From: Myxococcota bacterium
GTDB lineage: Bacteria; Myxococcota; XYA12-FULL-58-9; JABJBS01
Direction: 5' to 3'
Length of the DNA stretch: 64,000 bases
Assembly: GCA_036339465.1 (NCBI GenBank)
Contig: JAYZAY010000089.1
Span: 10,483 to 74,482, forward strand
The position numbers were made by a program, and so were the translations under genes. Numbering within the stretch: position 1 is the first letter of the stretch; every line of letters begins with the position of its first letter. The notes beneath the pieces were generated by a model that made no database searches, was not told the origin of the DNA, and saw nothing but the letters and a program-made list of their open reading frames with translations. Positions 45,183 to 61,843 of the stretch are shown one piece after another.

Positions 45183-45226
45183 GGATTTTTCAACAGTTTC
45201 CTGTATTTTCGTCGACCCTACTCAGT

Positions 45227-45982
45227 ATGAGTAGTTGCACTATCTCGGTCTCTAGTCACCGTGAACGACTTGTGGAATTAGGTTATACGATTGTTCCCAA
45301 CGTCCTTTCAAAGGACGAGGTCTCCAATTATCGTCGAGTTATGATTGAATACTTTTCGTGTCACGGAAATCGAAGTCCTGACGGAGTTTATACTCAACCC
45401 GATGCCATCAACGTATTGGAACTTGAAGCCCTATGTGAAGTCTTTGGATTGAGTACGCTGAATCAGGTTTTGCGAGGGATCTGCGACGGGGAGTTGCGGT
45501 ATCTTCATCATTTTGACGTACACATGAATATGCTTACCCGATACCACGATGATACTCAGGCGAAATACCTTCAGGGGGAGTACAAACATCTCGCCTCGGA
45601 ATCCCTGCACGACAAGGCAGATTACGCTGTTTTTACCATCGCTATTTATCTTCAAGATCATGTAGACGGGGGCGGCTTGTTCTTGAGGCCGGGAAGTCAC
45701 CGTGACTTGAGTTGTTCGGACGAAGTTTATATTGGACCCAAGGCGGGGGATGTTTTGGTGTTTGATGCTCGGTGTGTTCATAAGGCTGACACCGACTCCG
45801 AAACCATGAGGGATGCTCCTAAGCGATGTGCGATTTTCTATCGTTTGGGAAATAACTCACGACACAGCATTGCCCATGCCCTGGGAGCGATTTCTCGTCA
45901 ATTAACTCAAAATAGATGTACGCAGTATCAGCTTCAGCCCCATGTCGCTTCCTATTTAGAATCACAGCAAATTCTATATTGA
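45227..45982 (+). CDS. PhyH-family Fe(II)/2OG oxygenase
   Basis: GY.IVPNVLS..EV, YHDD, IYLQDH...GGL...PGSH, GDVLVFD.R.VH. Confidence 0.8.
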   Translation: MSSCTISVSSHRERLVELGYTIVPNVLSKDEVSNYRRVMIEYFSCHGNRSPDGVYTQPDAINVLELEALCEVFGLSTLNQVLRGICDGELRYLHHFDVHMNMLTRYHDDTQAKYLQGEYKHLASESLHDKADYAVFTIAIYLQDHVDGGGLFLRPGSHRDLSCSDEVYIGPKAGDVLVFDARCVHKADTDSETMRDAPKRCAIFYRLGNNSRHSIAHALGAISRQLTQNRCTQYQLQPHVASYLESQQILY

Positions 45983-46025
45983 TTTGAGTTTGTTTGCGCT
46001 GCTGTGTTTGCTTGGGATGTTTTCG

Positions 46026-46928
46026 TCAAGTCAGCCCGTAAAATGCATTGAGCTTTTCATCCATGGCAACTTGGCGTTCGGATAGGACGGGCATTTTCGT
46101 GGGCATCACGCCGACCCAGCGTCTATGTATCTTACCATCCACGAGCCAAAGGGTGGTCGGACTTTTAAATGTTAGAGATTGGTAGCGATAGAGTTCCATT
46201 TCCCGAGTTGTAAATTCAGTTCGCCACGATTTCAGGGTTGGGTTTTCGTCATGGTCTGGTGGAGTGACGATAAGGATTTGGAGAAAGGGGCTTGTTTCAA
46301 GATTGCGTAGTTCCTCAATAAAGCGTTTACAATGTTCGCAGTTGGGATGTAAGAAAGCGACGATGGCGGAAATTTGGTTCTCAAGATTGCTTTTTGGTAG
46401 CCAATGGGAACTCCAGTTTTTACCGGGTTTACTTTCCGAAAAATCTAAGAGCGGTTTGTCGGTGGAGCGTCCTGCGATGAAGATGCCCAGGCCTCCGAAG
46501 AGAATAATCTGTGGCCAAGAAAGGTGGCTGGGCTCTAGTGATTCAATCAGGATCATGGGTATCCATAAGAGGAGGGCGGCGCTTAAATGAATGGTGATGC
46601 TTTGTGCCGGAGTCACGAAGAAAATTTGTCCATAACAACCACAGTGACCGATTCTATTTTTTAGGTGTCCCCTGAGGGTGATGAGGGAGAATCCAATGAG
46701 CAGGGTCATGGCAGTGGGAATGGTGAGGGAAGGTGCGTGGCCAGAGAAGAGTGTGATTGCCAGTGCCCATTCGAGACCGATGATTGCGAGCGCCAAGGCG
46801 GGAAGGGTTTTGGCTGGCAGGAGACGGTGAAGGCGGAGTTGTTCTAGAAAAGCGCGGGAGTGTAAGGCTTTAGAGATGCCGCTGAGAAGGAAAATACTGG
46901 CTGCGATGGCCATTATAAATTTCGCCAT
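46026..46928 (-). CDS. MauE/DoxX-family membrane protein with C-terminal thioredoxin-like CxxC domain
   Basis: IFLLSG.SK, CGCYG, several TM helices, then FLHPNCEHC and SPT. Confidence 0.75.
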   Translation of the reverse strand: MAKFIMAIAASIFLLSGISKALHSRAFLEQLRLHRLLPAKTLPALALAIIGLEWALAITLFSGHAPSLTIPTAMTLLIGFSLITLRGHLKNRIGHCGCYGQIFFVTPAQSITIHLSAALLLWIPMILIESLEPSHLSWPQIILFGGLGIFIAGRSTDKPLLDFSESKPGKNWSSHWLPKSNLENQISAIVAFLHPNCEHCKRFIEELRNLETSPFLQILIVTPPDHDENPTLKSWRTEFTTREMELYRYQSLTFKSPTTLWLVDGKIHRRWVGVMPTKMPVLSERQVAMDEKLNAFYGLT

Positions 46929-47166
46929 GGTTACCTATACTATGAGGCATCATCATAAATTCCAAGACCCGACCGCTTTTAAGCTTGCCCCTCTATCTAT
47001 GGGGAGGCAGTTTCCCCAGCATCTCGTGCTCGGGGGGCTTTTCGACTTGGGCGGGAATCAATTCCATCAAGCTACGGATCTTTGGGGGCATTGATTGACT
47101 GCGACGAGCCAGGACGATAGCGTTCCTGAGAATTTCTGCACTAAGCGCTTGGGTCTGAGGTAAATC

Positions 47167-47946
47167 ATGGAAGTTACGTACAATAGTTATCTGAAAATTG
47201 ATGAATTGCTGGGCCTGCAAAAGCCCCTTTCCGATGGCCCCGAGCATGATGAGTTTCTCTTTATTACCATTCACCAGGTCTATGAGCTTTGGTTTCAGCA
47301 GGTTCTTCACGAAATGGACGGTTTGGTGGCGGCTTTGGACGAATCGGATATTCCCAAGGCCCAGAAGACGTTGAAGCGGATTCTGACGATTCTTAAAACC
47401 TTGGTGGCTCAGGTGGATATTTTGGAAACCATGACCCCACTTTCATTTCTTTCTTTCCGAGATAGGCTTTCTACCTCCAGCGGTTTTCAGTCACTGCAAT
47501 TTAGGGTCTTGGAATTTCGATTGGGCAAGACCGATCCCAAATTCCTCCATATGCATGAAGAGGGCAGTAAGGGGAGAGCGCAGTTAGATGCAATTGTGGC
47601 GGGACCCAGTGTTTACGACAAACTGCTGAATCATTTGTTTAGGAGTGGTTACAACATTCCGCAAGAGGTATTGAATCGGGATTATACAGAAACCTACCAA
47701 TGCTCTGAAGAGGTTCAGGACGTTCTGATTCAGGTACATCGTCATGATCCCACCAATGCCCAACTTTGCGAACTTTTTGTGGACCTCGATGAAGGCCTTC
47801 AGGAGTGGCGTTATCGCCATATCAAGATGGTCCAAAGAACCATTGGTACCAAAAAGGGAACCGGCGGTTCCGGGGTTGATTATTTGTTGACGACTTTGTC
47901 CCAATCCTTTTTTGAAGATCTGTGGGCGATTCGAGCAAATTTCTAG
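47167..47946 (+). CDS. kynA: Tryptophan 2,3-dioxygenase
   Basis: Y.SYL.ID.LL.LQ, HDE.LFI.IHQ.YELWF, LETMTP..F..FR, SSGFQS.QFR, WRYRH..MV.R.IG.K.GTGGS. Confidence 0.95.
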   Translation: MEVTYNSYLKIDELLGLQKPLSDGPEHDEFLFITIHQVYELWFQQVLHEMDGLVAALDESDIPKAQKTLKRILTILKTLVAQVDILETMTPLSFLSFRDRLSTSSGFQSLQFRVLEFRLGKTDPKFLHMHEEGSKGRAQLDAIVAGPSVYDKLLNHLFRSGYNIPQEVLNRDYTETYQCSEEVQDVLIQVHRHDPTNAQLCELFVDLDEGLQEWRYRHIKMVQRTIGTKKGTGGSGVDYLLTTLSQSFFEDLWAIRANF

Positions 47947-48005
47947 GGTTTGATTGAACCGCCAAGATAAGCGGGGGCCGATGATTTCTCGGCCTATTCT
48001 CCCCC

Positions 48006-48965
48006 TTATGCGGCCAGTCCGTTTTCTGTGAGCCGGTTGGCAAGGTATTCGCCCGCGGTCAGGGATGGATAGGTGGCTTGTCCGCCACTGGCATCGATGC
48101 ATTTTTGAACGGGGCTCAGATCCACCTCCGGACGGGGATGGACGAAGAAGGGCATGGAATAGCGTGCTGAATGATTGTCGGGGGGATTGGTGACTCTATG
48201 GGTTGTGGATTTGATGATACCGTTGCTGAGGTTTTGTAGCATGTCGCCAGAGTCGACAATGAGATTCCCCGCATGAACGTGCACACCAACCCAGGTACCA
48301 TCTCGGTGTAGGATTTCGAGTCCCGGGGCTGTGGATTCACAAAGGAGCGTGATTAAATTGATGTCCTCGTGGGCCGCGGCCCGAAGCGCGCCCTTGGGAG
48401 CTGTTTCCGGAAGGGGGGGGTAGTGGATGATGCGTTGGATACTGTCTCCGTGCTCCGCAAGGCTAGGAAGAAAATCGGGGCCCAGTTTGAGAAAACTACT
48501 GCAGGCCTCGAGGAGGGTTTTGGCGCAGGCTTCGTATTGTTTGTAGAGCCTGGTGAACGCATCGCGAAATTGTTGTGGCGCATCATTGGATTTTGGCCAA
48601 AGGTTTTTTGGGTAGACACGCTCGAGGGGATGTCCTGCTGGCAGTTGCTGACCAATATGCCAGAATTCCTTGAGGTCGGCGGCTCCCATTCCTTTGGCAC
48701 GTTCCTTAGCAAACCCCACGTAACCGCGTTTGCCTAGGTATTCTTTTTTTTCATAAGCGTTTTTGACTTCGTTAGATTGCTGGAAGAAGGCAGCGGCCAC
48801 ATTATAGGCTTTATCCACCAAAGTGAGATCTACAGAGTGATTGGATACCGCGAAAAATCCCAGCTGGGTGAGGGCTTCACCGAGTTGTTGAACGAATTTT
48901 TGTCGTTCAAGGGCGTTACCATGAGTGTAGTGTTCTAGGTTGAGGGTAGGAAGTGTTTGTTTCAT
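48006..48965 (-). CDS. Isopenicillin-N-synthase-family 2OG-Fe(II) oxygenase
   Basis: GFF.V.NH, RGY, DLKEFW, R.IHYP, AHEDINLITLL, GDML...NG...ST.HRV, RYSMPFF.HP. Confidence 0.92.
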   Translation of the reverse strand: MKQTLPTLNLEHYTHGNALERQKFVQQLGEALTQLGFFAVSNHSVDLTLVDKAYNVAAAFFQQSNEVKNAYEKKEYLGKRGYVGFAKERAKGMGAADLKEFWHIGQQLPAGHPLERVYPKNLWPKSNDAPQQFRDAFTRLYKQYEACAKTLLEACSSFLKLGPDFLPSLAEHGDSIQRIIHYPPLPETAPKGALRAAAHEDINLITLLCESTAPGLEILHRDGTWVGVHVHAGNLIVDSGDMLQNLSNGIIKSTTHRVTNPPDNHSARYSMPFFVHPRPEVDLSPVQKCIDASGGQATYPSLTAGEYLANRLTENGLAA

Positions 48966-49301
48966 CGCTTGCCTCGGTGATTATTGGGGAGAATCAACGG
49001 CGCCTACCGATTTGATTTCACTTAGTCAAGAGGCCCTTGTGATGCACAGGGGTCGCACGTTTTTGGTGCGGACTTGAAAGAAACCACCGATGGCGGCCAT
49101 CGTCTGTTCTTTCGCGGGAGCAGGGTCCTAAGGGGTGGAAATAGAATGCCCATTTGCCGGTTATGGTCGTGGTCTGTCGGAGTCAAAGGGCGCAGGCTGT
49201 TCTATTCTTGCATCATGGGCTCAGAAGGGTAGAGTCGAGTTGGACGCCATTGCTTATAGAATTGAAGTGCTCCATAAATATCAAAATAGGGGGAAGCTGG
49301 C

Positions 49302-50249
49302 ATGGGTGAAGCCAAACTGATGACCTATCCTCGTGGTTGGTTTGTGATTTCGTTTTCCGACGAACTCAAGGTTGGGGAAATTAAAAACTTACGCTATTTT
49401 GCTCGAGACATGGTGCTTTTTCGCACAGAAGACGGGCAAGCATGCTTGATCGACGCCTATTGCTCTCACCTAGGTGCCCATTTGGGTCACGGTGGCAAAG
49501 TGGATGGCAAGAGCATTCGTTGTCCGTTTCACGCGTGGTCTTTCGATGGTCACGGTCAATGCGTGAGTACACCTTACGCAGACAAAATGCCCAAGCGAAC
49601 AGAGATTGAATCTTGGCGGGTGATGGAACGCAACGGCATGATTTTTATGTATCATGATCTTGAGCATGGTGAACCTGAATATCAAATTCCAGAGTTGCCG
49701 GAATACGGTGATGATGAATGGCTGGAGTGGGACCACAGCATTTTACATATTAAAACCCAGCCTCGAGAGATTGTGGAAAACGTGGCCGATTTAGCACATT
49801 TTATTCCTGTGCACGGCACCCATCCCGAAGTTTTTGAAAACGAATTTGTGGATCATATGGCCACGCAAATCAATAAGGGCATGACCTATCCCCGAGGAGG
49901 TGGCAAAGATCCCTACAGTCTTACGGCAACCTACTATGGCCCGGCTTATCAACTAACTCACATGGACGGCGTGCTCCAAAGCCGATTGGTCAATGCTCAC
50001 ACCCCGGTGGATGAACACAGCTTAGATTTACGTTTCGCGGTCACCCTCAAAATACTCAAAGACCAAGAGACGACTGCGGGTTTTGCGAAGCGGTATATTG
50101 AGAATCTTCGGGTGGGGTTTTTAGAGGATGTGGCAATTTGGGAGCACAAGATGTGGCGCGACCGACCGGCACTTTGTGATGGTGATGGACCCATCGGGAA
50201 ACTGCGGAAGTGGTACCGCCAATTCTACACCCCGCGTCAAGCTGACTGA
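49302..50249 (+). CDS. Rieske non-heme iron oxygenase (KshA/cholesterol 7-desaturase-like)
   Basis: YPRGW, CSHLGAHL...CPFHAW Rieske site, EN.AD.AHF..VH, D..IWEHK, R.WY.QFY. Confidence 0.9.
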   Translation: MGEAKLMTYPRGWFVISFSDELKVGEIKNLRYFARDMVLFRTEDGQACLIDAYCSHLGAHLGHGGKVDGKSIRCPFHAWSFDGHGQCVSTPYADKMPKRTEIESWRVMERNGMIFMYHDLEHGEPEYQIPELPEYGDDEWLEWDHSILHIKTQPREIVENVADLAHFIPVHGTHPEVFENEFVDHMATQINKGMTYPRGGGKDPYSLTATYYGPAYQLTHMDGVLQSRLVNAHTPVDEHSLDLRFAVTLKILKDQETTAGFAKRYIENLRVGFLEDVAIWEHKMWRDRPALCDGDGPIGKLRKWYRQFYTPRQAD

Positions 50250-50253
50250 TTTC

Positions 50254-51255
50254 TTAGGTAGCGCCTTCAATATATTCTGGGTTTGCCAGTTTCATTTGGA
50301 AGTTTTCAATGGGATTGGCAAGTTGCGCCCAGCTAAGCACCACCGCAATCCAGAGGATATCGGCGACAAAGAGGTGAATGAGTTGCATCCAACCCGGAGC
50401 GCCGAGGGAAATATTGATGATGCCCAGACCGACTTGAGTCAAGGTGAGAAATACAACCCCTTGGGCCAATTTTAGGGTGAGAGGGTGGTCAAACCCTTTT
50501 TGCCCCTCTCTTTGCGCCCTTCGTTGAACGTGGGTTGAGATCCCCACGAGAAAGAGGCTGAGTCCCACGGCGAGAAAGGGGTGAATGATGCGTAGCCGGA
50601 CTAAGAAATGTTCGGTGGGGGAGAAGTCTTGCCTGATCCGGGCCATAATGTTTTCGGTGTCCGCAGGATTGATGGGAAAAAGAGTGTCGCCCAGTGCGGT
50701 GATGGCGCCGGTCATGCCCACGATGAGTAGTCCTAAAATGGCGCCTTCAAAAAGACGTCTCTCTGTTTTTAAGTGGGGCGGCATGGCAAGGCGTGGATGA
50801 GACCACCAGGCGGTTAGGGTCCCAAAGGCGATGAGCCCATGGGTGTTGGCGAGGTGAAGAGCGACCACCACGGCTCGGGAAATGGAGGTATCTTTGGCTA
50901 CCAGTCCCTTCAATACCAAAATGGCGCCGAGGGCGGCTTCTGAAAGTACGAAAATGAGAGTGAGTACTGCCATTTTCCGGACGGGGTGGTCTTTGGGAAA
51001 TAAACGAAAAGCGTAGATGGTGATGAGCAAAGTGAAAATGAGGGTGAATCCACTGGTGAGTCGGTGGGTGAATTCAATGATGGTTTCAATCCCCGGATCC
51101 CGAGGAATGATTTCGCCGCCGCAGCTAGGCCAGTGGTCACCGCAGCCAGCCCCTGAACCGGTGATGCGCACCCATGCGCCCCATAAAATAACCATGAGGT
51201 TGTAGATGACCACCATTGCAGCGGCCTTTGAGAAATGTGTGGGGGTGTGTAGCAT
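50254..51255 (-). CDS. ctaA: Heme A synthase (COX15/CtaA)
   Basis: GA.VR.TGSGAGCG.HWPSC.G, IEF.HRL.SG, HL, IIHP, IHL. Confidence 0.88.
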   Translation of the reverse strand: MLHTPTHFSKAAAMVVIYNLMVILWGAWVRITGSGAGCGDHWPSCGGEIIPRDPGIETIIEFTHRLTSGFTLIFTLLITIYAFRLFPKDHPVRKMAVLTLIFVLSEAALGAILVLKGLVAKDTSISRAVVVALHLANTHGLIAFGTLTAWWSHPRLAMPPHLKTERRLFEGAILGLLIVGMTGAITALGDTLFPINPADTENIMARIRQDFSPTEHFLVRLRIIHPFLAVGLSLFLVGISTHVQRRAQREGQKGFDHPLTLKLAQGVVFLTLTQVGLGIINISLGAPGWMQLIHLFVADILWIAVVLSWAQLANPIENFQMKLANPEYIEGAT

Positions 51256-51372
51256 GGCTTACCTTTCCTGCCTGGGAGTTGGCGCGGGGTCAAGAGATTG
51301 AGGGAGGTGTGGCGTTTGGGTTTTAAGGGTCGCCCTTTTTCGGGCAAACAAACGCTTTTTGAGGGAGGCCCC

Positions 51373-52293
51373 TTAGGTGTCATTTCCGGTGGATAAAACG
51401 CTTCGGTCGCCTTTGTAGAAATCGGAATCGTCTTCGTCGTATTCTAGGGCGCTACCCAGAGCGGCATCGGGGGTGAGTCCCACCAAGGCGGCGCCGGATC
51501 CCCATACGGGTTGGTAGTCGTAGATCTTACCGGAGAATTGATTGGATTGTCCCATCACTGCTCCGAGCCACCATAGGGCCTTAAGCTTATTGTCGCCATT
51601 GGCTTGGGCGGTAAAAGTTCGGGCCAATTGACTCACGTCTTCTAGGCGCCCCTCCCTTAGAAGTTCGAGGAATTTGCGATTCCATTCGTCGTCTTTTCGG
51701 GAATGAATGCGGTCGTCGGCCGGATCGATCCATTCTGTCCACATGCGGTTGGAGAGGGCGGTCACGGAAATGGCCACTGCTTTTTTCCCACTCTCTTGGA
51801 GGGCGTCCACCGCCGCCTTGCCCAAGATTAGGGTTTCGGCTCGGTCGGCGTACATATTGCACGATACCACACAGGCAGGGATTTCGTTATGGGGATTGAG
51901 TAGTTTGAGGGCCACGATGGTGCCCGGGTCCATGGGAAAGCCGCGGTAAGCGACGGTGCGTGCCGTGAGACCGCGGGCATGCGCCGCAGCTTCGTAGACG
52001 TGGGCAAAATCTGAATCCATGCGTAATTTGTAATGCATGGTGCCCAATTCGTGGAAGTCTTGATCCACCAAGCGCCATTCGGGCTGGGGATCGGCTTGGA
52101 TTTGATGGCCGATGATACTGGGCCACTGACTGCTGTAAATTAAGAGTAAATCGGGCTTTAGGGCCAAAATATCTTCCCGCGCCTGGCCGAAGGAATCATG
52201 CATGGATTGCCAATTTGGATTTTTCTCCGGCGCGAGAAGGATGTGGGGTTTGCCTGGGGCGATAAAGCCTGCGAGTACGTGTTCACACGTCAT
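51373..52293 (-). CDS. amnA: 2-aminophenol 1,6-dioxygenase alpha-subunit-like (AmnA/CnbCa, LigB fold, non-catalytic type)
   Basis: F.APG.P, KPDLLLIYS.QW, VD..FHE.G, Y.GFP.D.GTIVA, IDPADDR, D.WN, G.GAA.V; ATGA overlap with the amnB-like stop. Confidence 0.8.
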   Translation of the reverse strand: MTCEHVLAGFIAPGKPHILLAPEKNPNWQSMHDSFGQAREDILALKPDLLLIYSSQWPSIIGHQIQADPQPEWRLVDQDFHELGTMHYKLRMDSDFAHVYEAAAHARGLTARTVAYRGFPMDPGTIVALKLLNPHNEIPACVVSCNMYADRAETLILGKAAVDALQESGKKAVAISVTALSNRMWTEWIDPADDRIHSRKDDEWNRKFLELLREGRLEDVSQLARTFTAQANGDNKLKALWWLGAVMGQSNQFSGKIYDYQPVWGSGAALVGLTPDAALGSALEYDEDDSDFYKGDRSVLSTGNDT

Positions 52294-53189
52294 GATTGTG
52301 CCTCCTCTGGGATCCATTCCACGATGGCATTGCCTGTGCCGATGACGCTTCCGTAACCATGGAGATAGCCAGGGTATTGGGGCGTGCCTAAGGCGCCGAG
52401 TAACCAGGTAAGGCCCCCTTCACGGCACTCCGAGAGGGCTTGCTCGATGAAATCAGGCATTTCGGCCAAAATCTGTTGGGTTTTGCCGCTTTGGATGAGG
52501 TCTAAGATGTGTGCGTCCCACGAGGCCTGGTTTTTGTTGTAGATATATTCGAAGCGGGGGTCTTCGGGATCCTCTGGTTCTTCGGTGAAGTGTCGGTGAC
52601 TGAGGGAAGTGGAGGCTAAGAGCACGGCTTTTCGCCCGGTTTTTTCGATGGCCGTGCGGGTCGCTCTTCCGAGGGCCAGCATTTCAGCATCGCCCACATC
52701 GTTGCTGAAATAGTGATAGGGGCTTGCCGACGAAAGAACCACGATGGGTTTGTCCCATTTTGGGTACGATAGATGACAGCTGGTGATGGTTCCGTAATCC
52801 ACACGAAAATCCGGGTTTCGCATCATCTTGGTGACCAAACCCTCGGCTCGGGCTTCGGCTTCGATGGCTTCGGATAAATCCACGTCCACGTCCATCTCGT
52901 AGTTGTAACGGAAGAGGTTGGGGAAAATGGGATCTACGGAGAGATCCTTGAAGTGGGGGACCCCTAGAAAATGATGACCGACCACTGTTTTCCAGTGGGG
53001 AGTGTGGACGATGAGCACATCGAAGTCTTTTTGGTTGAGGCTTTGGCGTAGGGATTCATAGCCATCAAGGAGTGACTTCCAGGCGCCTGAACCGGTGGCC
53101 TCGGGTTCGTTTTGGATGGGGTTGGTGGCGTAGACCAAGTGCGGTGGGTGGGGTGCTAAACATCCGGAGACGATTGTGCCTCGGGTCAT
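52290..53189 (-). CDS. amnB: 2-aminophenol 1,6-dioxygenase beta-subunit-like (AmnB/CnbCb, catalytic)
   Basis: G.I.SG..APHPPHLVY..NP.QNEP, HTPHW.T.VGHHF, SVDPIFPNLFR, GLVTKMMRNP.FR.DYGTIT, LSH.HF.EEP, YG.VIGTGNA.VEW; His/His/Glu iron ligands present; start ATG 53189. Confidence 0.9.
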   Translation of the reverse strand: MTRGTIVSGCLAPHPPHLVYATNPIQNEPEATGSGAWKSLLDGYESLRQSLNQKDFDVLIVHTPHWKTVVGHHFLGVPHFKDLSVDPIFPNLFRYNYEMDVDVDLSEAIEAEARAEGLVTKMMRNPDFRVDYGTITSCHLSYPKWDKPIVVLSSASPYHYFSNDVGDAEMLALGRATRTAIEKTGRKAVLLASTSLSHRHFTEEPEDPEDPRFEYIYNKNQASWDAHILDLIQSGKTQQILAEMPDFIEQALSECREGGLTWLLGALGTPQYPGYLHGYGSVIGTGNAIVEWIPEEAQS

Positions 53190-54307
53190 GGCGTGCTCCT
53201 TGGTTGGGCGTCGTTGTTTATGGAGAATGCTTCGTGGTCGAAGTAGTATTGATCCGTGTCTGGGTCCCACTCATCCCAGGTGGCAATTTCTTCGAGTTGG
53301 CTTAAGCGGTTTTCGGGGACTACGTTGGCAACGATGAAGGCTTTTTGGCGGTGGAGGGAATAGGGATTTCGCAATTCAAATCCCAGAGTTCCTAGGATGG
53401 AACGGGCGATGTACCAGGTGGCCTGGGAATTCCAGCCATGGGCTATTTTGACCACCACACCCAAACCCTCAGGGTAGTCGGGATGAACGATGGCCATGCC
53501 CAAGAGACCGTCGGCCCCTTCCTTGGCAATCACGGCTCCATTACAGGATTTCAAAATGGTACTGTCTAACCTGTTGAATCCGCCCACGAGATCAGGATGG
53601 CGCATCATCGCCTCCCAGATCCAATCCTCATCTTTTGTGGCGGCGAGGGCTGAGAAGAGTGTGGCCAATTCTCCCACGGTATTGGCGATGGTTGGCAAGC
53701 CGCAACCATCTCTTGAAATTCTCAAGGGCTGCCAGTCTGCGCCCAAAAATCGTTGGACCTGCTTTAAATATGCCTTGAAGAAGGGATGGTGAGGGAGGAG
53801 GTAGCCTGTGCAGGGCCAGCCTTTGGCTTCACAACCGCGAATGATGGCTGCATGCTCACCGGAACAGGTGTGGAACCATCGCCTGGGGCGTCTCACTTGG
53901 CGACCAAATTGCACCAGTGGCAGGTCTAAGGGGGTCTGCATAAATCCCCAATTTTCTTTTTTGAGCAGGGATTGGGCAGCGGCCACGTGCATGGCGTCTC
54001 CGTTGTGGCTGCTTACGGCGATGGCCCGCTGTTGCCAGGTGGTGTCTTGGGCGAGTTCTTCGGCGAAGACTTTGAGCATGAAGGGTTTCATCATACTTCG
54101 ACCGTAGCAGAGGACGTTGCCGCCAAAGGAATGAACGATTTTGCCCCCACTGGCCCATGCCACGGCGCCGTGGATGGTGGTTTCGCTTACGCCGTTGCGT
54201 CGATAGTCGATGAGGGGCTCCCATTCGACTTCCCGGCCGGTGGCAATACCAGGCATGTTTTCGCCGAGGGGGCTTTTGGGATAAAATTCCGTTCCGGGTT
54301 TGGGCAT
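53186..54307 (-). CDS. Type-II (Rhizobium AnsA-like) asparaginase-family hydrolase, altered active site
   Basis: RSMMKPF, SSH.G...H, TCSGEH, DGCGLP, HPDLVGG..R.D, AKEGADG, VVKI..G. Confidence 0.8.
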   Translation of the reverse strand: MPKPGTEFYPKSPLGENMPGIATGREVEWEPLIDYRRNGVSETTIHGAVAWASGGKIVHSFGGNVLCYGRSMMKPFMLKVFAEELAQDTTWQQRAIAVSSHNGDAMHVAAAQSLLKKENWGFMQTPLDLPLVQFGRQVRRPRRWFHTCSGEHAAIIRGCEAKGWPCTGYLLPHHPFFKAYLKQVQRFLGADWQPLRISRDGCGLPTIANTVGELATLFSALAATKDEDWIWEAMMRHPDLVGGFNRLDSTILKSCNGAVIAKEGADGLLGMAIVHPDYPEGLGVVVKIAHGWNSQATWYIARSILGTLGFELRNPYSLHRQKAFIVANVVPENRLSQLEEIATWDEWDPDTDQYYFDHEAFSINNDAQPRSTP

Positions 54308-54310
54308 GGG

Positions 54311-55528
54311 CTATTTCTCCTGAAGATTTGGAGTGACGTGTTCCATGAAGGCTTCCATATTGTCGATGACCCGTTGGCTGTTGTGGTTGAAGAAGTCAAA
54401 CCAGAGCATGAGTCGGTCGTGGGGATGAAACCTCTCTCTGGCCTGCTCGATGATATCGGCAGGGTTACCGATGAGGGCGTTTTTAGCGGCGTTGGTGACC
54501 CGCGAAGGATCTAGGGTGCCCTCCAAGGCTTTCCAGTATTCGCCCAGGGCCACCGCCGCTTCCTCATGGGCCTTTTTCCGCTGTTGCTCGGGGCTTAGGT
54601 GAGGTTGGGCATTGATGAACACGAAGGTTGTCCGGGGCATAAAGGAGCGTTTCCAAGGGCCGCCACCGGGGTGATAGACCGCGCTAAGGCGCCGGTGGGT
54701 ATCTTCAATCTTATCGGGTTGGGTGATGGATAGATTGAAGACCTGCACCGGGAGGATTTGATTGAGCGTTTCTTGGATTTGGGGGGCATGGCTGCCCACA
54801 ATGAGTTGGAGGAGTTCCCGCCGCCAATGTTTCGGAATAATTTGTAGCGGCTCAAACTTGAAGCGCGGCTCGATTTCGATGGTGTGGGCGGTGGTGTTCG
54901 CTGCATTTTGCACCGCCAGCCAATCTTGTTGGTTGCGGAAGTTTTCGCGTTTTAGGATGGTTGGGTGGATGTCGTGGCTCGAGAGCACATCTCCCCGGAG
55001 GAGTTTGCACAATATCTCCGCCGCCTCGGCAAAGACCATGCCCTTGAGGGCGGGCCAGGCCGCTTCTTCCAGCGGGTTTCGGGGCACAATGCCAAAGGGT
55101 TGATTCATATACTCGAAACGGCCACCGGAGAAGCCGATGTGAATGCGTCTCTTTTCCTCCGGATCGAGTCCGTGGAGGTTGGCGAAGGTGGCGATGCGTT
55201 CTGCTGCGGCAATGGGCCCGCCGTTGCAAAGAATATTCATCACTGCGGAACCGCACTCGATATTCTTGGTGCGGGCAAAGACCTTTTGGGCCACTTGGAC
55301 AAAGTCGGTCATGAGGCCCACTTCTCCCTGCCAGTGGGGTATGACGGGCTTCGCATTTCGCTTTTGAATGGTGCTTGAGAGATGGGCTTCGGCAAACCAT
55401 GCGGTTTGGTAACCCAATTGGTCGGCGGCTTCCACCTGGTCGAAAAAGTTGTGAAACATCTCTGCTTCCGTGGGAAGTTGCCCCTCCACGGGAGTGTGGC
55501 TGATGGAGAAAAAGATATCGAATTTCAC
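54311..55528 (-). CDS. Luciferase-like (LLM) flavin-dependent monooxygenase
   Basis: MKFDIFFS, QVEAADQLGY.TAWFAE.H, RT..I..GSAV, P..AAERIA, LIG.P..I, LMLWFDF; GTG start 55528 with SD AGGGG. Confidence 0.85.
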   Translation of the reverse strand: MKFDIFFSISHTPVEGQLPTEAEMFHNFFDQVEAADQLGYQTAWFAEAHLSSTIQKRNAKPVIPHWQGEVGLMTDFVQVAQKVFARTKNIECGSAVMNILCNGGPIAAAERIATFANLHGLDPEEKRRIHIGFSGGRFEYMNQPFGIVPRNPLEEAAWPALKGMVFAEAAEILCKLLRGDVLSSHDIHPTILKRENFRNQQDWLAVQNAANTTAHTIEIEPRFKFEPLQIIPKHWRRELLQLIVGSHAPQIQETLNQILPVQVFNLSITQPDKIEDTHRRLSAVYHPGGGPWKRSFMPRTTFVFINAQPHLSPEQQRKKAHEEAAVALGEYWKALEGTLDPSRVTNAAKNALIGNPADIIEQARERFHPHDRLMLWFDFFNHNSQRVIDNMEAFMEHVTPNLQEK

Positions 55529-55679
55529 AAAAAGCCCCCTGACTTTGTTGGGATCCAAACGGGGGTTCCCTTGGGATTTGAAGTATTGAATACCGTGATT
55601 GTGGGTAAAAAAAGCACACTCTATCGAACGACTTATTCAAAATCAATGAGCATCTTTTTGGGCAATTATGCCGAGCAAA

Positions 55680-55735
55680 CTGGGCTTAAACGGGGTCTAA
55701 GCTTGGGCCTAGGCTGGGTCTAAGCCGGGCTTAAA
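55680..55735. repeat. Five tandem degenerate ~11-bp direct repeats
   Basis: CTGGGCTTAAA CGGGGTCTAAG CTTGGGCCTAGG CTGGGTCTAAG CCGGGCTTAAA. Confidence 0.8.
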
Positions 55736-55884
55736 CTGGTTCTCGAAACTCCCTAAAAAGTTTGAGAAAAGCGGCCGTTTCGACGAGGTCTGAGAAGCGC
55801 TGAACAAGGTTTTCTCTGCGGTGAGTTAGATTTTTTGTGGTTTTTGCTTTCGGAGTTTGAGGTGATGGCGGAGGGTTTGTCGGC

Positions 55885-57204
55885 TTAGGAATGGCCGACC
55901 ATCTCGGGGTGTTCGGGTTTGGGTTTCTTGGCGGTTTCGAGATATTCCCGCTCGACGGCTGCGTAGTCCACTTCCACATTCAAGCGGGCGAGGACGGAGA
56001 AAAAACCAAATTGAAGTCGGTTGATGAAGAGAATCCCCGGAGGCAAGGGCACGAAATGGTCGTTGTTTTGAGTCATCAACTCTTTGCACATCAAACCGAA
56101 TTCCTTCACCACGCCGGCGGCATAATTGCGGGTGATGCGGAAGGGGGGGGCGGTGATGGGGCGGAAAATAGAGCGTATGTAGTTATCGACCATGCGTTCG
56201 TAGGCACCTCCGTGGGTTTCCAAAATGACATGGGCAGCGGCGTAGAAGTTATCCCAATCTCGTTGGTTTGCCGCGATATGGAGTTTCACCGCTTCGGCGC
56301 GATGTTTTTCCTGAAAGGGCTGGATACACCCAAAATCGATGAAGCCCACTTCTCCATTGGGTCGGAAGATATAATTGCCGGGATGGGGATCGGCGTTGAA
56401 GAGGCCCTCCACGAGGGACGCTTTGTAAACGAATCGCCATAGGGTTTCGGCCCACGCCCGTCGTTCGTTTTCGGGGGCTTGGCAGGCTTGCTTAAATGGG
56501 ATCCCCTCCACGAATTCTGTGGTAAGCACCCGAGCGGTAGAATGACTGGCGATGACTTTGGGAATATGGACGTTTCTGCTTTCTCGGTGGATCTCTCGGA
56601 AGCGCATTTGGCTTTCTGCTTCTCGGTGGTAGTCGAGTTCTTCGCGGAAGCGTTGCTTGACTTCTTCGGTGAGTCGCTTGGAGTCGAATTTTCCCATGCC
56701 AAAAGCGCGCATGGGCATTTCCACCATCGCGGCATTGCGTAAATCGGCTTCCATGGCAGCTTCGATGCCGGGGTGGTGCACTTTTACTGCCACCTGGCGT
56801 CCGTCGTGAAGGGTTGCCCGGTGCACCTGTCCGATGGACGCACTGGCTATGGGATCGTCTTCCCAAGTGGCGAAGGCTTCGGTGATGGTTTGGCCGAATT
56901 CCGATTCCACCAAGGCGCGGATTTCTCCCCCGTTGGATTTGGGGGCTTGAGTTTGGAGGGTCTCCATGGTCTTTTCGTAGAGTTCGTGTTTGCCCTCGGG
57001 GACGATGCCGTCAACATAGCTCATCATTTGCCCCATTTTGGCAGCCACCCCGCGAAGTTGACCCAAGAGTTTTACGGTATCCATGACGCGGTTTTCCGAC
57101 TGTCCTTTGGAGAGGAGATCGGCGCCGGTTTTGAGGCTGGCGGATGCGAGTTTGGTGATGCGGGAGAATCTGCCTAGGGGAAGCTTGGTTTTGTTATCAT
57201 CCAT
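55885..57204 (-). CDS. ABC1/UbiB/AarF-family atypical kinase
   Basis: K.GQ, ASASIGQVH, VAVKV, EELDY..EA, ADPHPGN, IDFG. Confidence 0.93.
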   Translation of the reverse strand: MDDNKTKLPLGRFSRITKLASASLKTGADLLSKGQSENRVMDTVKLLGQLRGVAAKMGQMMSYVDGIVPEGKHELYEKTMETLQTQAPKSNGGEIRALVESEFGQTITEAFATWEDDPIASASIGQVHRATLHDGRQVAVKVHHPGIEAAMEADLRNAAMVEMPMRAFGMGKFDSKRLTEEVKQRFREELDYHREAESQMRFREIHRESRNVHIPKVIASHSTARVLTTEFVEGIPFKQACQAPENERRAWAETLWRFVYKASLVEGLFNADPHPGNYIFRPNGEVGFIDFGCIQPFQEKHRAEAVKLHIAANQRDWDNFYAAAHVILETHGGAYERMVDNYIRSIFRPITAPPFRITRNYAAGVVKEFGLMCKELMTQNNDHFVPLPPGILFINRLQFGFFSVLARLNVEVDYAAVEREYLETAKKPKPEHPEMVGHS

Positions 57205-57462
57205 CTTGGGGAGAGGGTTATACTCTTGAGCCTACGAAAACAAGCGGAAGGCTTCATGGGGGGCAAAGGTTCAACTCTTTGTTATTGTACCTGATGCTCT
57301 GGGTTGAATGATGGTGTCGACCCTCAGGAAGTGGGGTAACTTCTAGAACTTCTAGCAAATAGAGTCGCTTTGATTTGTGTCTTTGAGACGGTCGTGACGT
57401 TTCTCACTTTCGGAAAATAAATTGTGTCCGTGTGTTTTTCAACCTTTGGCTAAGCCGTTGGG

Positions 57463-57940
57463 TTGATGCGGCTGTTTAATTTGGAGGAGCACAGGAGGAT
57501 TGACCTAGTGAATTGGGTTATCCGCCAAGACCACGTGGGTGCGGCTCTGTGGCTGCCTTCTGAAAAGCGAGAGACCTCCAGGGTGGTGCAGGCAGGTCTT
57601 TGGCCCATGTTCATCGGCGTCACCGGGTGGGGGATATTCACTAAGACTCTTCGGGCTTTTCATGCCACGGACAAGGTTCATTATTCAAGTCCCCATATGT
57701 ATCTCCTTTCTCTATCTTCCCATCCCAAGAACCGGGGCAAGGGGATCGGGGGGGGAGTTGCTGTGCCAGATGACAGAGCTTTGTGACGCCCAAGAGCTGC
57801 CCATTCACCTCGAGAATACCAAGGAGGCCAATGAAAATTTCTACCGGCGCTTTGGTTTCGAAACCCTCGGCGACATCGATTTAGGTGCGGGCTGTCTGTC
57901 CTATCTCGGGGCGATGCTTCGCAAACCAAAGGGCGTGTGA
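57463..57940 (+). pseudogene. GNAT acetyltransferase split by a +1 frameshift in a G8 run; 5' end apparently eroded
   Basis: Frame 1: GAALW...HMYL.SL..HP..RGKGIGG. Frame 2 continues ELL...CD....PIHLE......N..FYRRFGFE. Junction at GGGGGGGG 57748-57755. Confidence 0.7.
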
Positions 57941-58340
57941 AAAGGGGGACTAAAGGGGAGGTTTTGTTACGACAGGGATTGGGGTAGGGAGCCTTGCTTT
58001 GCAGCCCTATCCTATCGCTTCGGCTTTTCCGGTGAACTCCCTTTCCTACACGTGCATTACGCCTGTTTTTTTCCTACCATCTTAATGCAAGCAATGCCCA
58101 TTGGTCGATGTTGTGGGAGGGATAGCCCCCGGCGGAGTTGGCCTTGATTCACTGAGTATTCGAAGGGGAAAATCGGCCGACCTTAGAGAGCCAAACCGGG
58201 ATCGCCACCGGATTTGTCCATAGGGCAATCATGAATTTCCCTGTAATTTGCGGCAGCGGTTAAAGCTCAAGGGCTCTGATGGTTTGCAAAATGCCTATGA
58301 GGTTTGTGGCCCCGATTGGGTATCTGCCTATCTAGCGGGT

Positions 58341-58625
58341 GTGGAGGAGCGTCGGGAGTATTCTCGTTTGAATGTGGAGATTCTGTGGAATTGTTTGTGA
58401 ATGGCGAAGTGAAGGAAGCGCGATCCACCAATGTCGGCCACCGGTCTCTTTATTTGAGAGTGCCGTGCGATTTTCCAAGGGTCAAAGGGTTGAGTTGGTG
58501 GTCAGAGTTCGTTTGGATGGGGAAGATCTATCGGTGAGAAATGGATGGGGAAGTGGCTTTTGTGGCTCGCCGTTTTTCGGAAGGATTTTGGCAATACCAA
58601 CAATAGGCTTCAATTTACCAAAAAA
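58341..58625 (+). pseudogene. Frameshifted PilZ-domain gene remnant
   Basis: GTG 58341 MEERREYSRLNVE (RxxxR), then successive frames SVELFVNGEVKEARSTNVGHRSLYL / FSKGQRVELVVRV / MDGEVAFV. Confidence 0.55.
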
Positions 58626-58672
58626 TTTAGGTAATCAGTGCCCAGTGAATACCAGCGACATTGGAGGTTTTT

Positions 58673-59233
58673 ATGAAGGGTTTGGTTTTTAGTCTTCTTT
58701 TGGTTTTTCCTCAACTTGGGTTGGCGACTTCTAAGGTACAACCACCGGGAAGTGTCAAAGTACAAATCGACACTTCCATGGGAGATATCGTCGTTCAGCT
58801 CGATTCTCGGGCGTCGATTACGATCAAGAATTTTCTTTCTTATGTCGACAGCGGCTATTACGACGGAACCATCTTCCATCGGGTTATTTCAAATTTCATG
58901 ATCCAAGGGGGTGGAATGGTACCAGGTTTGCAGGAGAAGAAGCCCCAAGCGCCGATTCAGTTGGAAGTGGGCAAGGGGCTTTCCAACGTGCGTGGCTCTG
59001 TGGCTATGGCCAGAACCAACGCCCCCCATAGCGCGACCAGTCAATTTTTTATCAATGTCAAGGATAACAAGCGTTTGGATACCGCCGGTGGTGGTTACGC
59101 CGTTTTTGGCAAGGTGGTGCAGGGTATGGACGTGGTGGACAAAATCAAGGCTGTCGAAACCACCGTTCGCATGGGACAGCGTGATGTTCCAGTGAAACCC
59201 GTGATGATCAAAGCGGTGAAGCGTCTTCCCTAA
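58673..59233 (+). CDS. ppiA: Periplasmic cyclophilin-type peptidyl-prolyl isomerase
   Basis: Signal peptide; FHRVI.NFMIQGGG, RG.VAMART..PHSATSQFFIN, GYAVFGKV..GMDVV; SD GGAGG before ATG 58673. Confidence 0.93.
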   Translation: MKGLVFSLLLVFPQLGLATSKVQPPGSVKVQIDTSMGDIVVQLDSRASITIKNFLSYVDSGYYDGTIFHRVISNFMIQGGGMVPGLQEKKPQAPIQLEVGKGLSNVRGSVAMARTNAPHSATSQFFINVKDNKRLDTAGGGYAVFGKVVQGMDVVDKIKAVETTVRMGQRDVPVKPVMIKAVKRLP

Positions 59234-59629
59234 GCAACCGCCGATGTTTTGAGGTGGAACAAAGAGCTTTCGGTTGCACTTAACTGGTGTGCTTGTCTTA
59301 CCTGTTGAAAAGTGAATGTGCTGAAGGGACACTTGGGCCATGGTATTTCGCACCGAGCCCACCGTGGATGTGCGCACCAATCTTACGCTTTAGTTGGTGG
59401 GGTGCACAGCCTGCATCCCTTTAAGAGTGCGCCCTATTGTCTCGGTTTTACGGCTCCTTGGGTGGAGGGGGTGTTTGAGAGGGAAATCTTCGCCGCGATC
59501 CGCAAGCCCTCTAAGCGCTCTTATCTTCTTGATATGCTATTTCTTCGCAACGACTAGGTTTCCCGTGTTACGGTCTTGGAATTGAGTTCTGTGATCCAGC
59601 TGCTGACACTTGAGACGATTGGAGAAATT

Positions 59630-61177
59630 ATGGCCGATGGTGAGTCCCAAAAAAAGTTACAAATGAATCTGGTGGTCTTTGGCGCGAGTGTGGGGATCAT
59701 TGTTTTGATGTTGGTGGGCGCAGTGGTGGCCACGGATACGGTGGCCGGAGCTTTCAATACGATTCAAGCGGTCATTATGGAAAAGTTCGGCTGGCTCTAC
59801 GTCTTGTCCATAACTGGATTCCTGTTGTTTGCTTTTTGGATCATGCAGAGTAGATTTGGTCGAATCAAGCTCGGTCCTGACGATTGCGAACCCGATTTTG
59901 GTATGCTCACTTGGTTTGCTATGCTCTTTAGCGCGGGTATGGGCATTGGCCTCCTCTTTTTCAGTGTGGCTGAGCCCATGTCTCATTATGGCTCCCCGCC
60001 GAGTGGTGTAGGCAATACCTTGGAGAGCGCTAGAGGTGCCATGGGTGTCACTTTTTTTCATTGGGGACTTCATGGATGGGCGGTTTATTCGGTGGTGGGC
60101 TTATGCTTCGCCTATTTTAGTTTTCGTCGAGGGCTGCCTTTGTCGATTCGCTCTGCCTTTCATCCGCTCTTAGGGGATAAGATCAATGGACCCATTGGGG
60201 ATTTTGTCGATACCTTAGCCGTGGTGAGTACACTCTTTGGAGTGGCTACTTCCTTGGGATTGGGGGCCATGCAGGTCAATGCGGGATTGAATCATGTTTT
60301 TGGGGTACCGGAATCCATAACCATGCAGGTGGTGATTATTGGTTGTATTACGGCGATGGCGACCGCGTCGGTGGTGTCGGGGCTCGATGTTGGGATCCGT
60401 CGTTTGAGCGAGCTCAATATGGGGCTAGCGGTCCTACTTTTGATCTTTGTTTTTGTTGCTGGACCGACCGCATTTATCCTAAACGCATTTGTCGACAATA
60501 TCGGGTCCTATTTGACCCATCTACCCCGCCATTCCTTTTGGGTGGGTTCCTTCTCGTCTCCTCAAGAACAAACCTGGCTGAGTAACTGGACCATTTTTTA
60601 TTGGGCATGGTGGATCGCGTGGACGCCCTTTGTAAGCATGTTTATCGCCAGAGTTTCGAGAGGGCGAACCATTCGAGAATATATGGGGGCGGTTTTAGTG
60701 GCACCTACTTTGGCTGGTTTTGTGTGGCTTACGGTGTTTGGTGATGCTGCCCTTTTTGAAGAGATCTACGGTGGAGGGGGGATTGCAAGTGCGGTCAACG
60801 AAAGTATTCCCACGGCGCTATTCGTATTGCTGGACCGATATCCCTTGGCCTCAATCACAGGGCTCGTGGCCACGGTTTGCGTGATCCTATTTTTTATCAC
60901 GTCTTCGGACTCGGCATCTTTGGTGGTGGATACCATTGCTTCAGGCGGGGTTGAGGATCCACCGGTGATCCAGCGTGTGTTTTGGGCGGTTTTTGAGGGC
61001 GTGGTGGCGGGGGTGCTTCTTTTTGCCGGTGGACTCAAAGCGCTCCAGACCGCATCTTTGACCACGGCACTTCCTTTTTGTTTTGCGATTATCGTGATGT
61101 GTTGGGCTTTGGTGAAGGGGTTGAGAGAGGATGCTCTTGAGGTATCTGAGACAGAACAATCCAAGCCCGACTCTTAG
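59630..61177 (+). CDS. BCCT-family (betaine/choline/carnitine) transporter
   Basis: WFAMLFSAGMGIG, FFHWGLHGW.VY, GVATSLG, WT.FYWAWW.AW.PFV..FIAR.SRGRTIRE, TSSDS. Confidence 0.95.
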   Translation: MADGESQKKLQMNLVVFGASVGIIVLMLVGAVVATDTVAGAFNTIQAVIMEKFGWLYVLSITGFLLFAFWIMQSRFGRIKLGPDDCEPDFGMLTWFAMLFSAGMGIGLLFFSVAEPMSHYGSPPSGVGNTLESARGAMGVTFFHWGLHGWAVYSVVGLCFAYFSFRRGLPLSIRSAFHPLLGDKINGPIGDFVDTLAVVSTLFGVATSLGLGAMQVNAGLNHVFGVPESITMQVVIIGCITAMATASVVSGLDVGIRRLSELNMGLAVLLLIFVFVAGPTAFILNAFVDNIGSYLTHLPRHSFWVGSFSSPQEQTWLSNWTIFYWAWWIAWTPFVSMFIARVSRGRTIREYMGAVLVAPTLAGFVWLTVFGDAALFEEIYGGGGIASAVNESIPTALFVLLDRYPLASITGLVATVCVILFFITSSDSASLVVDTIASGGVEDPPVIQRVFWAVFEGVVAGVLLFAGGLKALQTASLTTALPFCFAIIVMCWALVKGLREDALEVSETEQSKPDS

Positions 61178-61843
61178 TTCGTGATGATGTTTTGACGGTG
61201 CGATGCTTCCTTTGTGATTTGTGACACGGGGCTGAGGCTTCTGATTCCTTTTCGGGATGGTTTGGTTTGTTTGGTGGTGGACCAGTTGCTTTCACCACGG
61301 ATATTTTTCATGCCACACCCTGTGGTTTTCTCTTTTAGGGATGATGCTTCTTGATGATGAAGGTATGGGTGTCATGGGTGGTGGGCGGTTTTCTATTTGG
61401 AGGTGGGTGCTTATCTCAAGAGAAAACGCTCCAGCCGCCCTTTTTCTCGTGGTAGGCTGGAAGGCGGTCTTTTTGGCCGGTGTTGCCATGGGCTTGGGGT
61501 GAGGATAAATTGGCGTCGGGCCCCACACTCTCACCGGACCGCAGTATACACAAGTTTTAAGAGGCAGTCTGCAATGGCGTGGGGCGCTTATCCCAATTTA
61601 GGTATGGGGTTAAACAAATCGAAAGGGAAAAACAATGTCTAATTTCTACCATACGAAGTTTTGAGGTCGCGTGGTCTGCGTTTTGAACTTCTGCTTGGAA
61701 TGTGTCGAAGCGGTTTTGGGAGATTGGTTGGCGTGGAGTTTTCCCGTGAATGCCTACCCGAAGAAGGTAGGCATTGGCCTAGGTGCTCTTAAGGGGGGGT
61801 AGGGAAATACAATTCCCAAGCCCAGCGGGTGGTGGGTCTGATT

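Follow-up and report, generated by a model that had tools for sequence, protein, structure and literature searches.

A conserved operon of a luciferase-like monooxygenase, a Ser-Lys hydrolase and an AmnBA-type dioxygenase is proposed to degrade tryptophan without kynureninase

A four-gene operon encoding a luciferase-like monooxygenase (LLM), an asparaginase-family hydrolase and the two subunits of an AmnBA-type ring-cleavage dioxygenase occupies positions 51373 to 55528 of a 64,000-nt stretch of a Myxococcota genome (contig JAYZAY010000089.1; the whole stretch analysed is referred to as the window). It is a pared form of a gene set that is widespread among uncultured marine bacteria and archaea. 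We propose that this operon is a kynureninase-free tryptophan catabolic module that would operate via aspartate and 2-aminophenol, and place the probability of this general claim at about 0.8. The proposal is carried by the co-conservation of the genes across bacteria and archaea, and by a distribution that supports a tie between the gene unit and tryptophan. The genes in question are as follows.

55528..54311, minus strand: LLM gene, 405 aa, GTG start (open reading frame (ORF) list and translation)
54307..53186, minus strand: gene for an Asparaginase_II-like (class-3-asparaginase-like Ser-Lys) hydrolase, 373 aa, PF06089
53189..52290, minus strand: AmnB-like gene (homologue of the beta, catalytic subunit of 2-aminophenol 1,6-dioxygenase), 299 aa
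52293..51373, minus strand: AmnA-like gene (homologue of the alpha, non-catalytic subunit of 2-aminophenol 1,6-dioxygenase), 306 aa
47167..47946, plus strand: kynA (tryptophan 2,3-dioxygenase, short form), 259 aa, PF03301, 219 bits

The GTG start of the LLM gene has AGGGGG 7–8 nt to its 5′ side. The LLM stop codon (54313–54311) is separated from the hydrolase ATG (54307) by 3 nt, and ATGA overlaps join the hydrolase to AmnB (53189–53186) and AmnB to AmnA (52293–52290). Both overlaps presuppose internal ATG starts, at M28 of the longest AmnB ORF and M9 of the longest AmnA ORF, which coincide with the beginning of the alignments to solved AmnB and AmnA chains. All three gene junctions are spanned with 0 differences by contigs of three other sequencing runs (X3 record 12, 53016–53406; X5 record 27, 52174–52437; X3 record 14 and X4 record 21, across 54307–54311), and thus are not assembly artefacts. 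A preliminary description of this DNA gave the layout as four co-oriented genes with a 3-nt gap at one junction and ATGA overlaps at the other two, which is borne out by the ORFs and by contigs of other runs; the kynA gene that it placed ∼3.4 kb from the operon is confirmed by its PF03301 match.

The four genes form a co-conserved unit

A scan of one genome per GTDB species gave at least 586 confirmed stretches, from which 80 loci of other species were kept; by their record titles these are mostly from Planctomycetota and Marine Group II archaea. Gene counts by tblastn place the LLM in 78 of the 80 loci. Of the 74 loci with room for it, 68 have the LLM immediately 5′ of the hydrolase; the other six have it elsewhere in the locus. 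An aldehyde dehydrogenase (ALDH) gene is found in 76 loci, a short-chain dehydrogenase/reductase (SDR) in 60, AmnB in 56, AmnA in 55, a RidA domain or gene in 52, and kynA and a cyclase-family gene in 15 each. Downstream sequence reaches 6.5 kb or more in 51 loci, of which 48 have AmnB together with AmnA. Pfam matches in representative loci give the full operon as kynA-SDR-LLM-hydrolase-ALDH-AmnB-AmnA-RidA-cyclase (KynB type), and in several phyla kynA and kynB are its two ends. These counts support the four genes as a real, co-conserved unit, so that the coupling seen in a single contig by the preliminary description holds in other genomes. A census of the flanks of 18 relatives gave 106 flanking or inserted ORFs; Pfam, run on the nearest 38, found no recurrent extra gene and no lower meta-pathway gene.

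The hydrolase orthologs, from metagenomes and metagenome-assembled genomes (MAGs) of bacteria and archaea, are 66–83% identical, and this level of identity across domains suggests strong constraint together with wide horizontal spread. Orthologs with E below 1e-180 are present in 12 of 301 sampled genomes of the phylum, all but one of them in the window's order; the other 17 hydrolase-family matches in that sample are paralogs of ∼30% identity.

Distribution with genes of the kynurenine pathway

The first 50 of the 80 loci, drawn from several phyla, were taken as carriers. A kynA match above cut-off is present in 49 of these 50 carriers as opposed to 2 of 14 control genomes, whereas kynureninase is found in none of the 50 and 3-hydroxyanthranilate dioxygenase (3-HAO, HAAO) in one. 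The 3-HAO model had no match in the 14 controls, but did match G001, a genome of the window's order. Within that order (22 genomes) a hydrolase ortholog is present in 12, all of which have kynA, and in none of the eight genomes that lack kynA. The 14 genomes with kynA are the 12 carriers, G089 (86% complete, with kynA at contig ends) and G001. Only G001, which is without the gene set, has kynureninase (over cut-off) and 3-HAO; both are found in 0 of the 12 carriers. The link to kynA raised in the preliminary description is thus upheld, with kynA in 49/50 and 12/12 carriers and inside the locus in 15 of 80. Its idea that the canonical genes are missing stands for kynureninase (0/50 and 0/12) and HAAO (1/50 and 0/12) and fails for kynB, which relatives carry in cyclase form within the operon itself.

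The gene content of G001 provides a direct comparison. A single G001 contig carries kynB-AMSDH-RidA, and HAAO-ACMSD-KynU followed by a KMO-like gene for a FAD (flavin adenine dinucleotide)-binding protein that is clipped by the fetched stretch. The G001 set and that of the carriers share kynA, kynB, AMSDH and a deaminase and differ only in the middle, which comprises KMO, KynU, HAAO and ACMSD in G001 and (SDR,) LLM, hydrolase and AmnBA in the carriers. Thus, the LLM set must convert kynurenine to 2-aminomuconic semialdehyde and, as AmnBA makes this semialdehyde from 2-aminophenol, the LLM and the hydrolase are left to make 2-aminophenol from kynurenine. The window kynA, 42–46% identical to the kynA genes within cluster loci of Planctomycetota relatives, likely encodes the first enzyme of the same pathway as the operon. 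Two kynA forms accompany the set, a short one of ∼260–280 aa (window, Planctomycetota) and a long one of ∼375 aa (G094, the closest relative of the window genome, and Poseidoniales), which are ∼34% identical when compared at 47167–47946 of the window and L083:4219-5253.

Sequence features of the dioxygenase, hydrolase and LLM

Both dioxygenase proteins match PF02900, as two adjacent LigB-type paralogues, beta then alpha. The AmnB-like protein matches the solved beta chains of 2-aminophenol 1,6-dioxygenase (8ihg_A, 3vsg_B) at E 3e-101 and is 53% identical to CnbCb of plasmid pCNB1, and the AmnA-like protein matches the solved alpha chain 7txy_A at E 1.5e-53. In an alignment with the pCNB1 enzyme, AmnB H14, H65, E254 and H198 fall on CnbCb H13, H62, E251 and H195, which we take to be the iron ligands and the catalytic His/base; the pCNB1 CnbCb translation was confirmed to have H, H, H and E at 13, 62, 195 and 251, and AmnA shows G, Q, D and N at these four columns. 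The close homology to AmnB and AmnA and the intact beta-subunit iron ligands of the preliminary description are therefore upheld. Sequence and active site place the pair in the AmnBA family, and the closeness of AmnB to proven 2-aminophenol dioxygenases, together with the kept active-site residues, would imply a small o-aminophenol substrate. When the beta subunits were placed in a tree with alpha subunits as the root, 31 cluster-linked sequences formed a clade of their own (SH-like approximate likelihood ratio test (SH-aLRT) 96) that lies beside, and not inside, five plasmid-borne xenobiotic-type enzymes. Many relatives, archaeal as well as bacterial, encode an AmnA of 450–480 aa that carries a fused RidA deaminase domain at its C terminus (L032:12637-14049; also L006, L009, L011, L012 and L087–L090). 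The window AmnA, of 306 aa, is not fused to RidA and ends in a short acidic tail.

The hydrolase scores 173.8 bits with PF06089 and matches the class 3 L-asparaginases ReAIV and ReAV of Rhizobium etli (PDB 7os3, 8cly) at E 1e-17. According to PMC12292245, Arg47 of ReAV binds the substrate alpha-carboxylate and Ser48 is the nucleophile; on that description the equivalents of Arg47, Ser48, Lys51, Ser80 and Lys263 in the hydrolase are R70, S71, K74, S100 and K262, which are invariant in 32 of 32 aligned orthologs. The metal site is different. The column of the ReAV zinc-site residue Lys138 holds Lys in 0/32 orthologs, Glu in 28/32 (the window included) and His or Gln in 4/32, and the zinc-site Cys pair (Cys135, Cys189) is kept in 28/32 and replaced by Ser and Asp in the other four. 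These positions co-vary, with Cys..Glu..Cys in most orthologs and Ser..His/Gln..Asp in L007, L010, L087 and L091. The hydrolase thus shares its family and its Arg, Ser and Lys equivalents with ReAV/ReAIV and is distinguished from them by low identity, by the Lys138 column and by a gene that is fixed within a kynurenine/aminophenol operon. The retained nucleophile, both Ser-Lys tandems and the alpha-carboxylate Arg would fit an aspartyl substrate, such that the beta-aspartyl catalytic machinery appears to be retained and the part thought to help recognise asparagine appears to be rebuilt. We therefore propose the protein as a putative aspartyl-(2-aminophenol) ester/amide hydrolase, the substrate being predicted from these residues.

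The LLM matches PF00296 with 40.9 bits (cut-off 27.9) over its N-terminal third only, and a PDB sequence search with it returned nothing significant. Its family is small and isolated, with 309 relatives among 1.84 billion representatives. An AlphaFold model from 34 sequences has a predicted local distance difference test (pLDDT) score of 92.9, and Foldseek ranks luciferase-like TIM barrels at the top (8cbb, RslO1 (7bip), 2i7g and 1luc; E 3e-15 to 8cbb, 12–17% identity). The luciferase-like flavin-monooxygenase family to which the LLM belongs includes the type II (FMN (flavin mononucleotide), two-component) Baeyer-Villiger enzymes. Among these, the 2,5- and 3,6-diketocamphane monooxygenases share the luciferase-like TIM-barrel fold with bacterial luciferase and, as modelled at 12–17% identity, with the LLM, and the attack of a flavin peroxide on a carbonyl, by which they act, is the chemistry that we propose for it. 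The modelled fold would thus fit a Baeyer-Villiger reaction, although it does not specify the reaction type, and the LLM is a candidate kynurenine Baeyer-Villiger monooxygenase. A predicted protein of 1501 aa (P0128) carries the LLM family at residues 1–211 (47% identity) followed by GATase and ApbE flavin-transferase domains, and could be a fusion or a gene-calling artefact.

Proposed route from tryptophan to 2-aminomuconate

In the proposed route, KynA would make N-formylkynurenine, from which a formamidase (the cyclase-type KynB in relatives) would make kynurenine. The LLM, with reduced flavin and O2, would then carry out a Baeyer-Villiger reaction on kynurenine, placing an oxygen between its aryl ring and its side-chain ketone; this would yield aspartate beta-(2-aminophenyl) ester, a compound able to rearrange to N4-(2-hydroxyphenyl)asparagine. 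The Ser-Lys hydrolase would split this beta-aspartyl compound into L-aspartate and 2-aminophenol, AmnBA would open 2-aminophenol to 2-aminomuconic 6-semialdehyde, and an unlinked AmnC ortholog on contig C44 of the window genome would oxidise the latter to 2-aminomuconate. The mass balance is closed, in that kynurenine + O + H2O equals aspartate + 2-aminophenol. We infer both new reactions and their order, and for this specific pair of steps, Baeyer-Villiger oxygenation of kynurenine and then hydrolysis to aspartate and 2-aminophenol, our confidence is slightly better than even. A Baeyer-Villiger step followed by hydrolysis would also suit the two enzyme families better than the order given in the preliminary description, in which the hydrolase acts first and the LLM then hydroxylates the ortho position; none of the results supports that order.

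Several observations weigh against the proposed route. Many of the 50 carriers are incomplete MAGs and the genomes are related to each other; one of the 50 is without a kynA match and one has 3-HAO. Three of the 51 loci with room (L003, L014 and L026) have no AmnBA nearby, and the SDR, present in 60 of the 80 loci, has no role in the scheme. The separation of the cluster-linked AmnB clade means that the 2-aminophenol substrate is extrapolated over a sequence difference of ∼47%. Foldseek does not single out Baeyer-Villiger enzymes, with 3,6-diketocamphane monooxygenase (4uwm) ranked 29th at 12% identity, and Pfam revealed no flavin reductase among the 38 nearest flanking ORFs of the 18 relatives. 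In the window genome (G000; 92.8% complete, 1.44% contamination) neither tblastn nor a family search found a cyclase-type kynB, the best tblastn match to the SDR is 27–31% identical and no ortholog was found, and no close deaminase ortholog was found either, the best RidA match being 33% identical. Lastly, there are no RNA runs among the listed sequencing runs that contain the stretch.

If the proposal is correct, neither kynureninase nor KMO nor HAAO is needed for the breakdown of tryptophan in many uncultured marine bacteria and archaea, an ability that genome-based metabolic reconstructions currently miss. Two families would gain new reactions, namely Baeyer-Villiger oxygenation of an amino acid for the LLM and hydrolysis of an aryl aspartyl compound for the class-3 asparaginase fold, and the 2-aminophenol pathway, known from degraders of nitroaromatics and pollutants, would gain a natural physiological substrate. 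In a broader form, to which we would give even odds, the LLM would be a new kind of kynurenine monooxygenase and the hydrolase a new aspartyl-aminophenol hydrolase, which together would make up a third major way of degrading tryptophan and the natural job of Amn-type dioxygenases, used by Marine Group II archaea, Planctomycetota and other abundant ocean heterotrophs and yielding aspartate directly. A literature search found no description of a kynurenine Baeyer-Villiger reaction or of a 2-aminophenol route for tryptophan, subscription journals and supplements lying outside that search.

Alternative readings of the gene unit

The main rival reading, which we consider unlikely, uses the same enzymes in a different order. 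The LLM would hydroxylate kynurenine at C3, AmnBA would cleave the resulting 3-hydroxykynurenine, and the hydrolase would remove the acyl side chain from the ring-fission product, again giving aspartate and 2-aminomuconic semialdehyde. This hydroxylation scheme has an equal mass balance and explains the same phyletic pattern, and the position of the cluster-linked AmnB clade apart from proven 2-aminophenol enzymes, which counts against the aminophenol route, makes a bulkier substrate such as 3-hydroxykynurenine possible. It is opposed by the LLM-hydrolase adjacency in 68 of 74 loci, which suggests that these two enzymes catalyse consecutive steps, and by an AmnB that is still 53% identical to CnbCb. 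To our knowledge, moreover, LLM enzymes do not usually hydroxylate aromatic rings, and we know of no precedent for C-C hydrolysis by the Ser-Lys class-3 asparaginase fold.

It is more doubtful still that the set degrades some other aminoaromatic, such as an N-acyl or O-acyl aminophenol or another aryl ketone, with no relation to tryptophan and with the link to kynA arising by coincidence of amino-acid catabolic islands. Such a reading draws on the window itself, where kynA and the operon lie on opposite strands and are separated by three unrelated genes, and on the presence of kynA inside the fetched flanks of only 15 of 80 loci. Its difficulty is the genome-wide pattern, with kynA in 49/50 carriers versus 2/14 controls and the set in 0/8 of the kynA-less genomes of the order, to which may be added the placement of kynA and kynB at the operon ends in several phyla.

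In the model of the preliminary description, the hydrolase would be a formamidase or deacylase and the LLM an ortho-hydroxylase, with AmnBA serving as a dioxygenase of the 3-hydroxyanthranilate type. They would stand in for KynB, KMO and HAAO, which would put them on a path towards quinolinate. Although kynA is 3.4 kb away and kynB, kynureninase and HAAO were not found in the window genome, this model is now highly improbable. A hydrolase that replaces formamidase is at odds with the cyclase-type kynB retained inside the operons of relatives, and 3-hydroxyanthranilate would need the kynureninase found in 0/50 and 0/12 carriers. The AmnC and RidA deaminase genes in relatives' operons point to catabolism via 2-aminomuconate in place of the quinolinate or NAD-type route, and NadA is present in the window genome. 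An NAD-synthesis reading was accordingly rejected, as NadA is present and cleavage of 2-aminophenol cannot yield quinolinate. Finally, the notion that an ordinary asparaginase and an unrelated LLM stand by chance beside an aminophenol dioxygenase is barely tenable, since its only footing, that PF06089 is an asparaginase family, is opposed by synteny conserved across phyla and domains, by the ReAV metal-site Lys being found in 0/32 orthologs and by the ordinary PF06089 members of the phylum being only ∼30% identical.

Comparison with known pathways

The amn clusters of Pseudomonas sp. AP-3 and Burkholderia and the cnb cluster of Comamonas CNB-1 (pCNB1) likewise have adjacent beta then alpha LigB-type genes with the iron ligands kept, and their semialdehyde dehydrogenase and RidA deaminase are likewise present in most relatives of the window, although not in the window operon. 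The dehydrogenase, hydratase, decarboxylase and tautomerase beside cnbCaCb on pCNB1 are also missing from the window operon. Whereas amn and cnb clusters serve the degradation of nitro- and chloro-aromatics, the window-type set instead has the LLM, hydrolase, SDR, kynA and kynB; the window operon is thus not an amn/cnb-type operon. The paper on the actinobacterial ARO microcompartment that reports 7TXY (PMC10470539) contains, in its accessible part, no mention of luciferase, asparaginase, kynuren or tryptophan, and on that basis the ARO locus would be a different AmnBA context.

The canonical kynurenine pathway (KynA, KynB, KMO, KynU, HAAO, ACMSD, AMSDH and a deaminase) has its start, KynA/KynB, and its end, AMSDH and a RidA-type deaminase, in common with the proposed route, which swaps in the LLM, hydrolase, AmnBA and usually an SDR for KMO, KynU, HAAO and ACMSD. 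The canonical by-products are alanine and CO2, whereas aspartate is predicted here, and the proposed route, unlike the canonical one, would have no 3-hydroxyanthranilate or quinolinate branch point. Its logic has a parallel in the 4-hydroxyacetophenone monooxygenase route, in which a Baeyer-Villiger enzyme turns an aryl ketone into an aryl ester that is hydrolysed to a phenol and ring-cleaved. That monooxygenase is of type I (FAD, NADPH), and its accompanying esterase and ring-cleavage enzyme are from families other than those found here.

A trimmed form of the operon in the window genome

In none of the 80 loci does AmnB directly adjoin the hydrolase, and the ALDH gene intervenes in 52. Beyond the window, the direct hydrolase-AmnB junction was seen only in G094, which is of the same family and has the locus kynA-LLM-hydrolase-AmnB-AmnA with products 76–78% identical to the window proteins. 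The AmnC/ALDH ortholog of the window genome is unlinked (C44:2845-4284) and lies next to proline-biosynthesis-like and AlkB-like genes. It shares 54–58% identity with the cluster ALDHs, and its match to 2-aminomuconate-6-semialdehyde dehydrogenase 4u3w has E 4e-146. The window operon is thus a trimmed form, shared only with G094, in which AmnC has moved out and AmnA is unfused. The preliminary description had remarked on the missing aminomuconic-semialdehyde dehydrogenase and deaminase; Pfam indeed found neither gene in the window at 43638–63234, nor did tblastn in the rest of its contig, and the remark holds for the window but not for the genome, given the C44 ortholog. Lower meta-pathway genes (decarboxylase, hydratase, aldolase) were likewise not found near the window operon by Pfam.

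The other same-family genomes divide the set in a different manner. G059 and G069 have an SDR-LLM-kynB locus and a separate hydrolase-ALDH locus, and in G069 and G301 the second locus continues as hydrolase-ALDH-AmnB(-AmnA). In G094, SDR and kynB form a pair away from the operon, and the flanks of this pair have no clear counterpart in the window genome. Since these two genes are neighbours in G094, their absence from the window genome could stem from a single deletion or a single unassembled contig. The window genome has kynA, and kynureninase and 3-HAO were also not found in it at 92.8% completeness. The RidA gene on contig C27 of the window genome sits among genes for electron transfer flavoprotein (ETF), an SDR and ribulose-phosphate epimerase, with no pathway context. 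In the AmnB tree, the window and G094 proteins group with Planctomycetota (SH-aLRT 100) and not with the same-family G069 and G301, and the trimmed operon has therefore probably been exchanged horizontally. If the proposal is correct, the window operon is an example of how the module may lose and disperse some of its genes and yet be retained.

Genomic neighbourhood and additional observations

The region 5′ of the LLM gene is as follows.

55529..55884: intergenic region, 356 nt, without an ORF on the operon strand

The operon promoter is presumably located in this region, in which a scan for the sigma-70 consensus gave no site. A terminator scan gave terminator-like matches that are unconvincing. 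On the upstream side of the LLM gene is a gene for an ABC1 kinase. Between kynA and the operon are three genes, for a 2-oxoglutarate (2OG) oxygenase, a Rieske/KshA_C oxygenase and a CtaA/COX15-like protein, the last being co-oriented with AmnA and 117 nt downstream of it. They belong to a dense run of oxygenase-type genes at 43638–51255 that comprises TetR, two PhyH-family genes, a MauE-thioredoxin fusion, 2OG-Fe(II), Rieske/KshA_C and CtaA/COX15-like genes. By tblastn, the window neighbours other than kynA have no counterpart in the 80 related loci, and the Rieske/KshA_C, 2OG, CtaA, MauE and PhyH genes were rejected as pathway members on this ground.

Two types of additional gene were observed in relatives. 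In one of 18 loci, a gene for a 2-oxoadipate dioxygenase/decarboxylase (PF07063) follows kynB (L090:1717-2523), a hint that 2-oxoadipate may lie further along the pathway. The AmnA-RidA gene of Marine Group II archaea is followed by one for an amino-acid permease (L032:14073-15071, L040:13146-14813), a possible importer of tryptophan or kynurenine. The window itself has a gene for a BCCT betaine/carnitine/choline transporter at 59576–61177 (646 bits), and the stretch occurs in marine and seawater metagenome runs from several studies.

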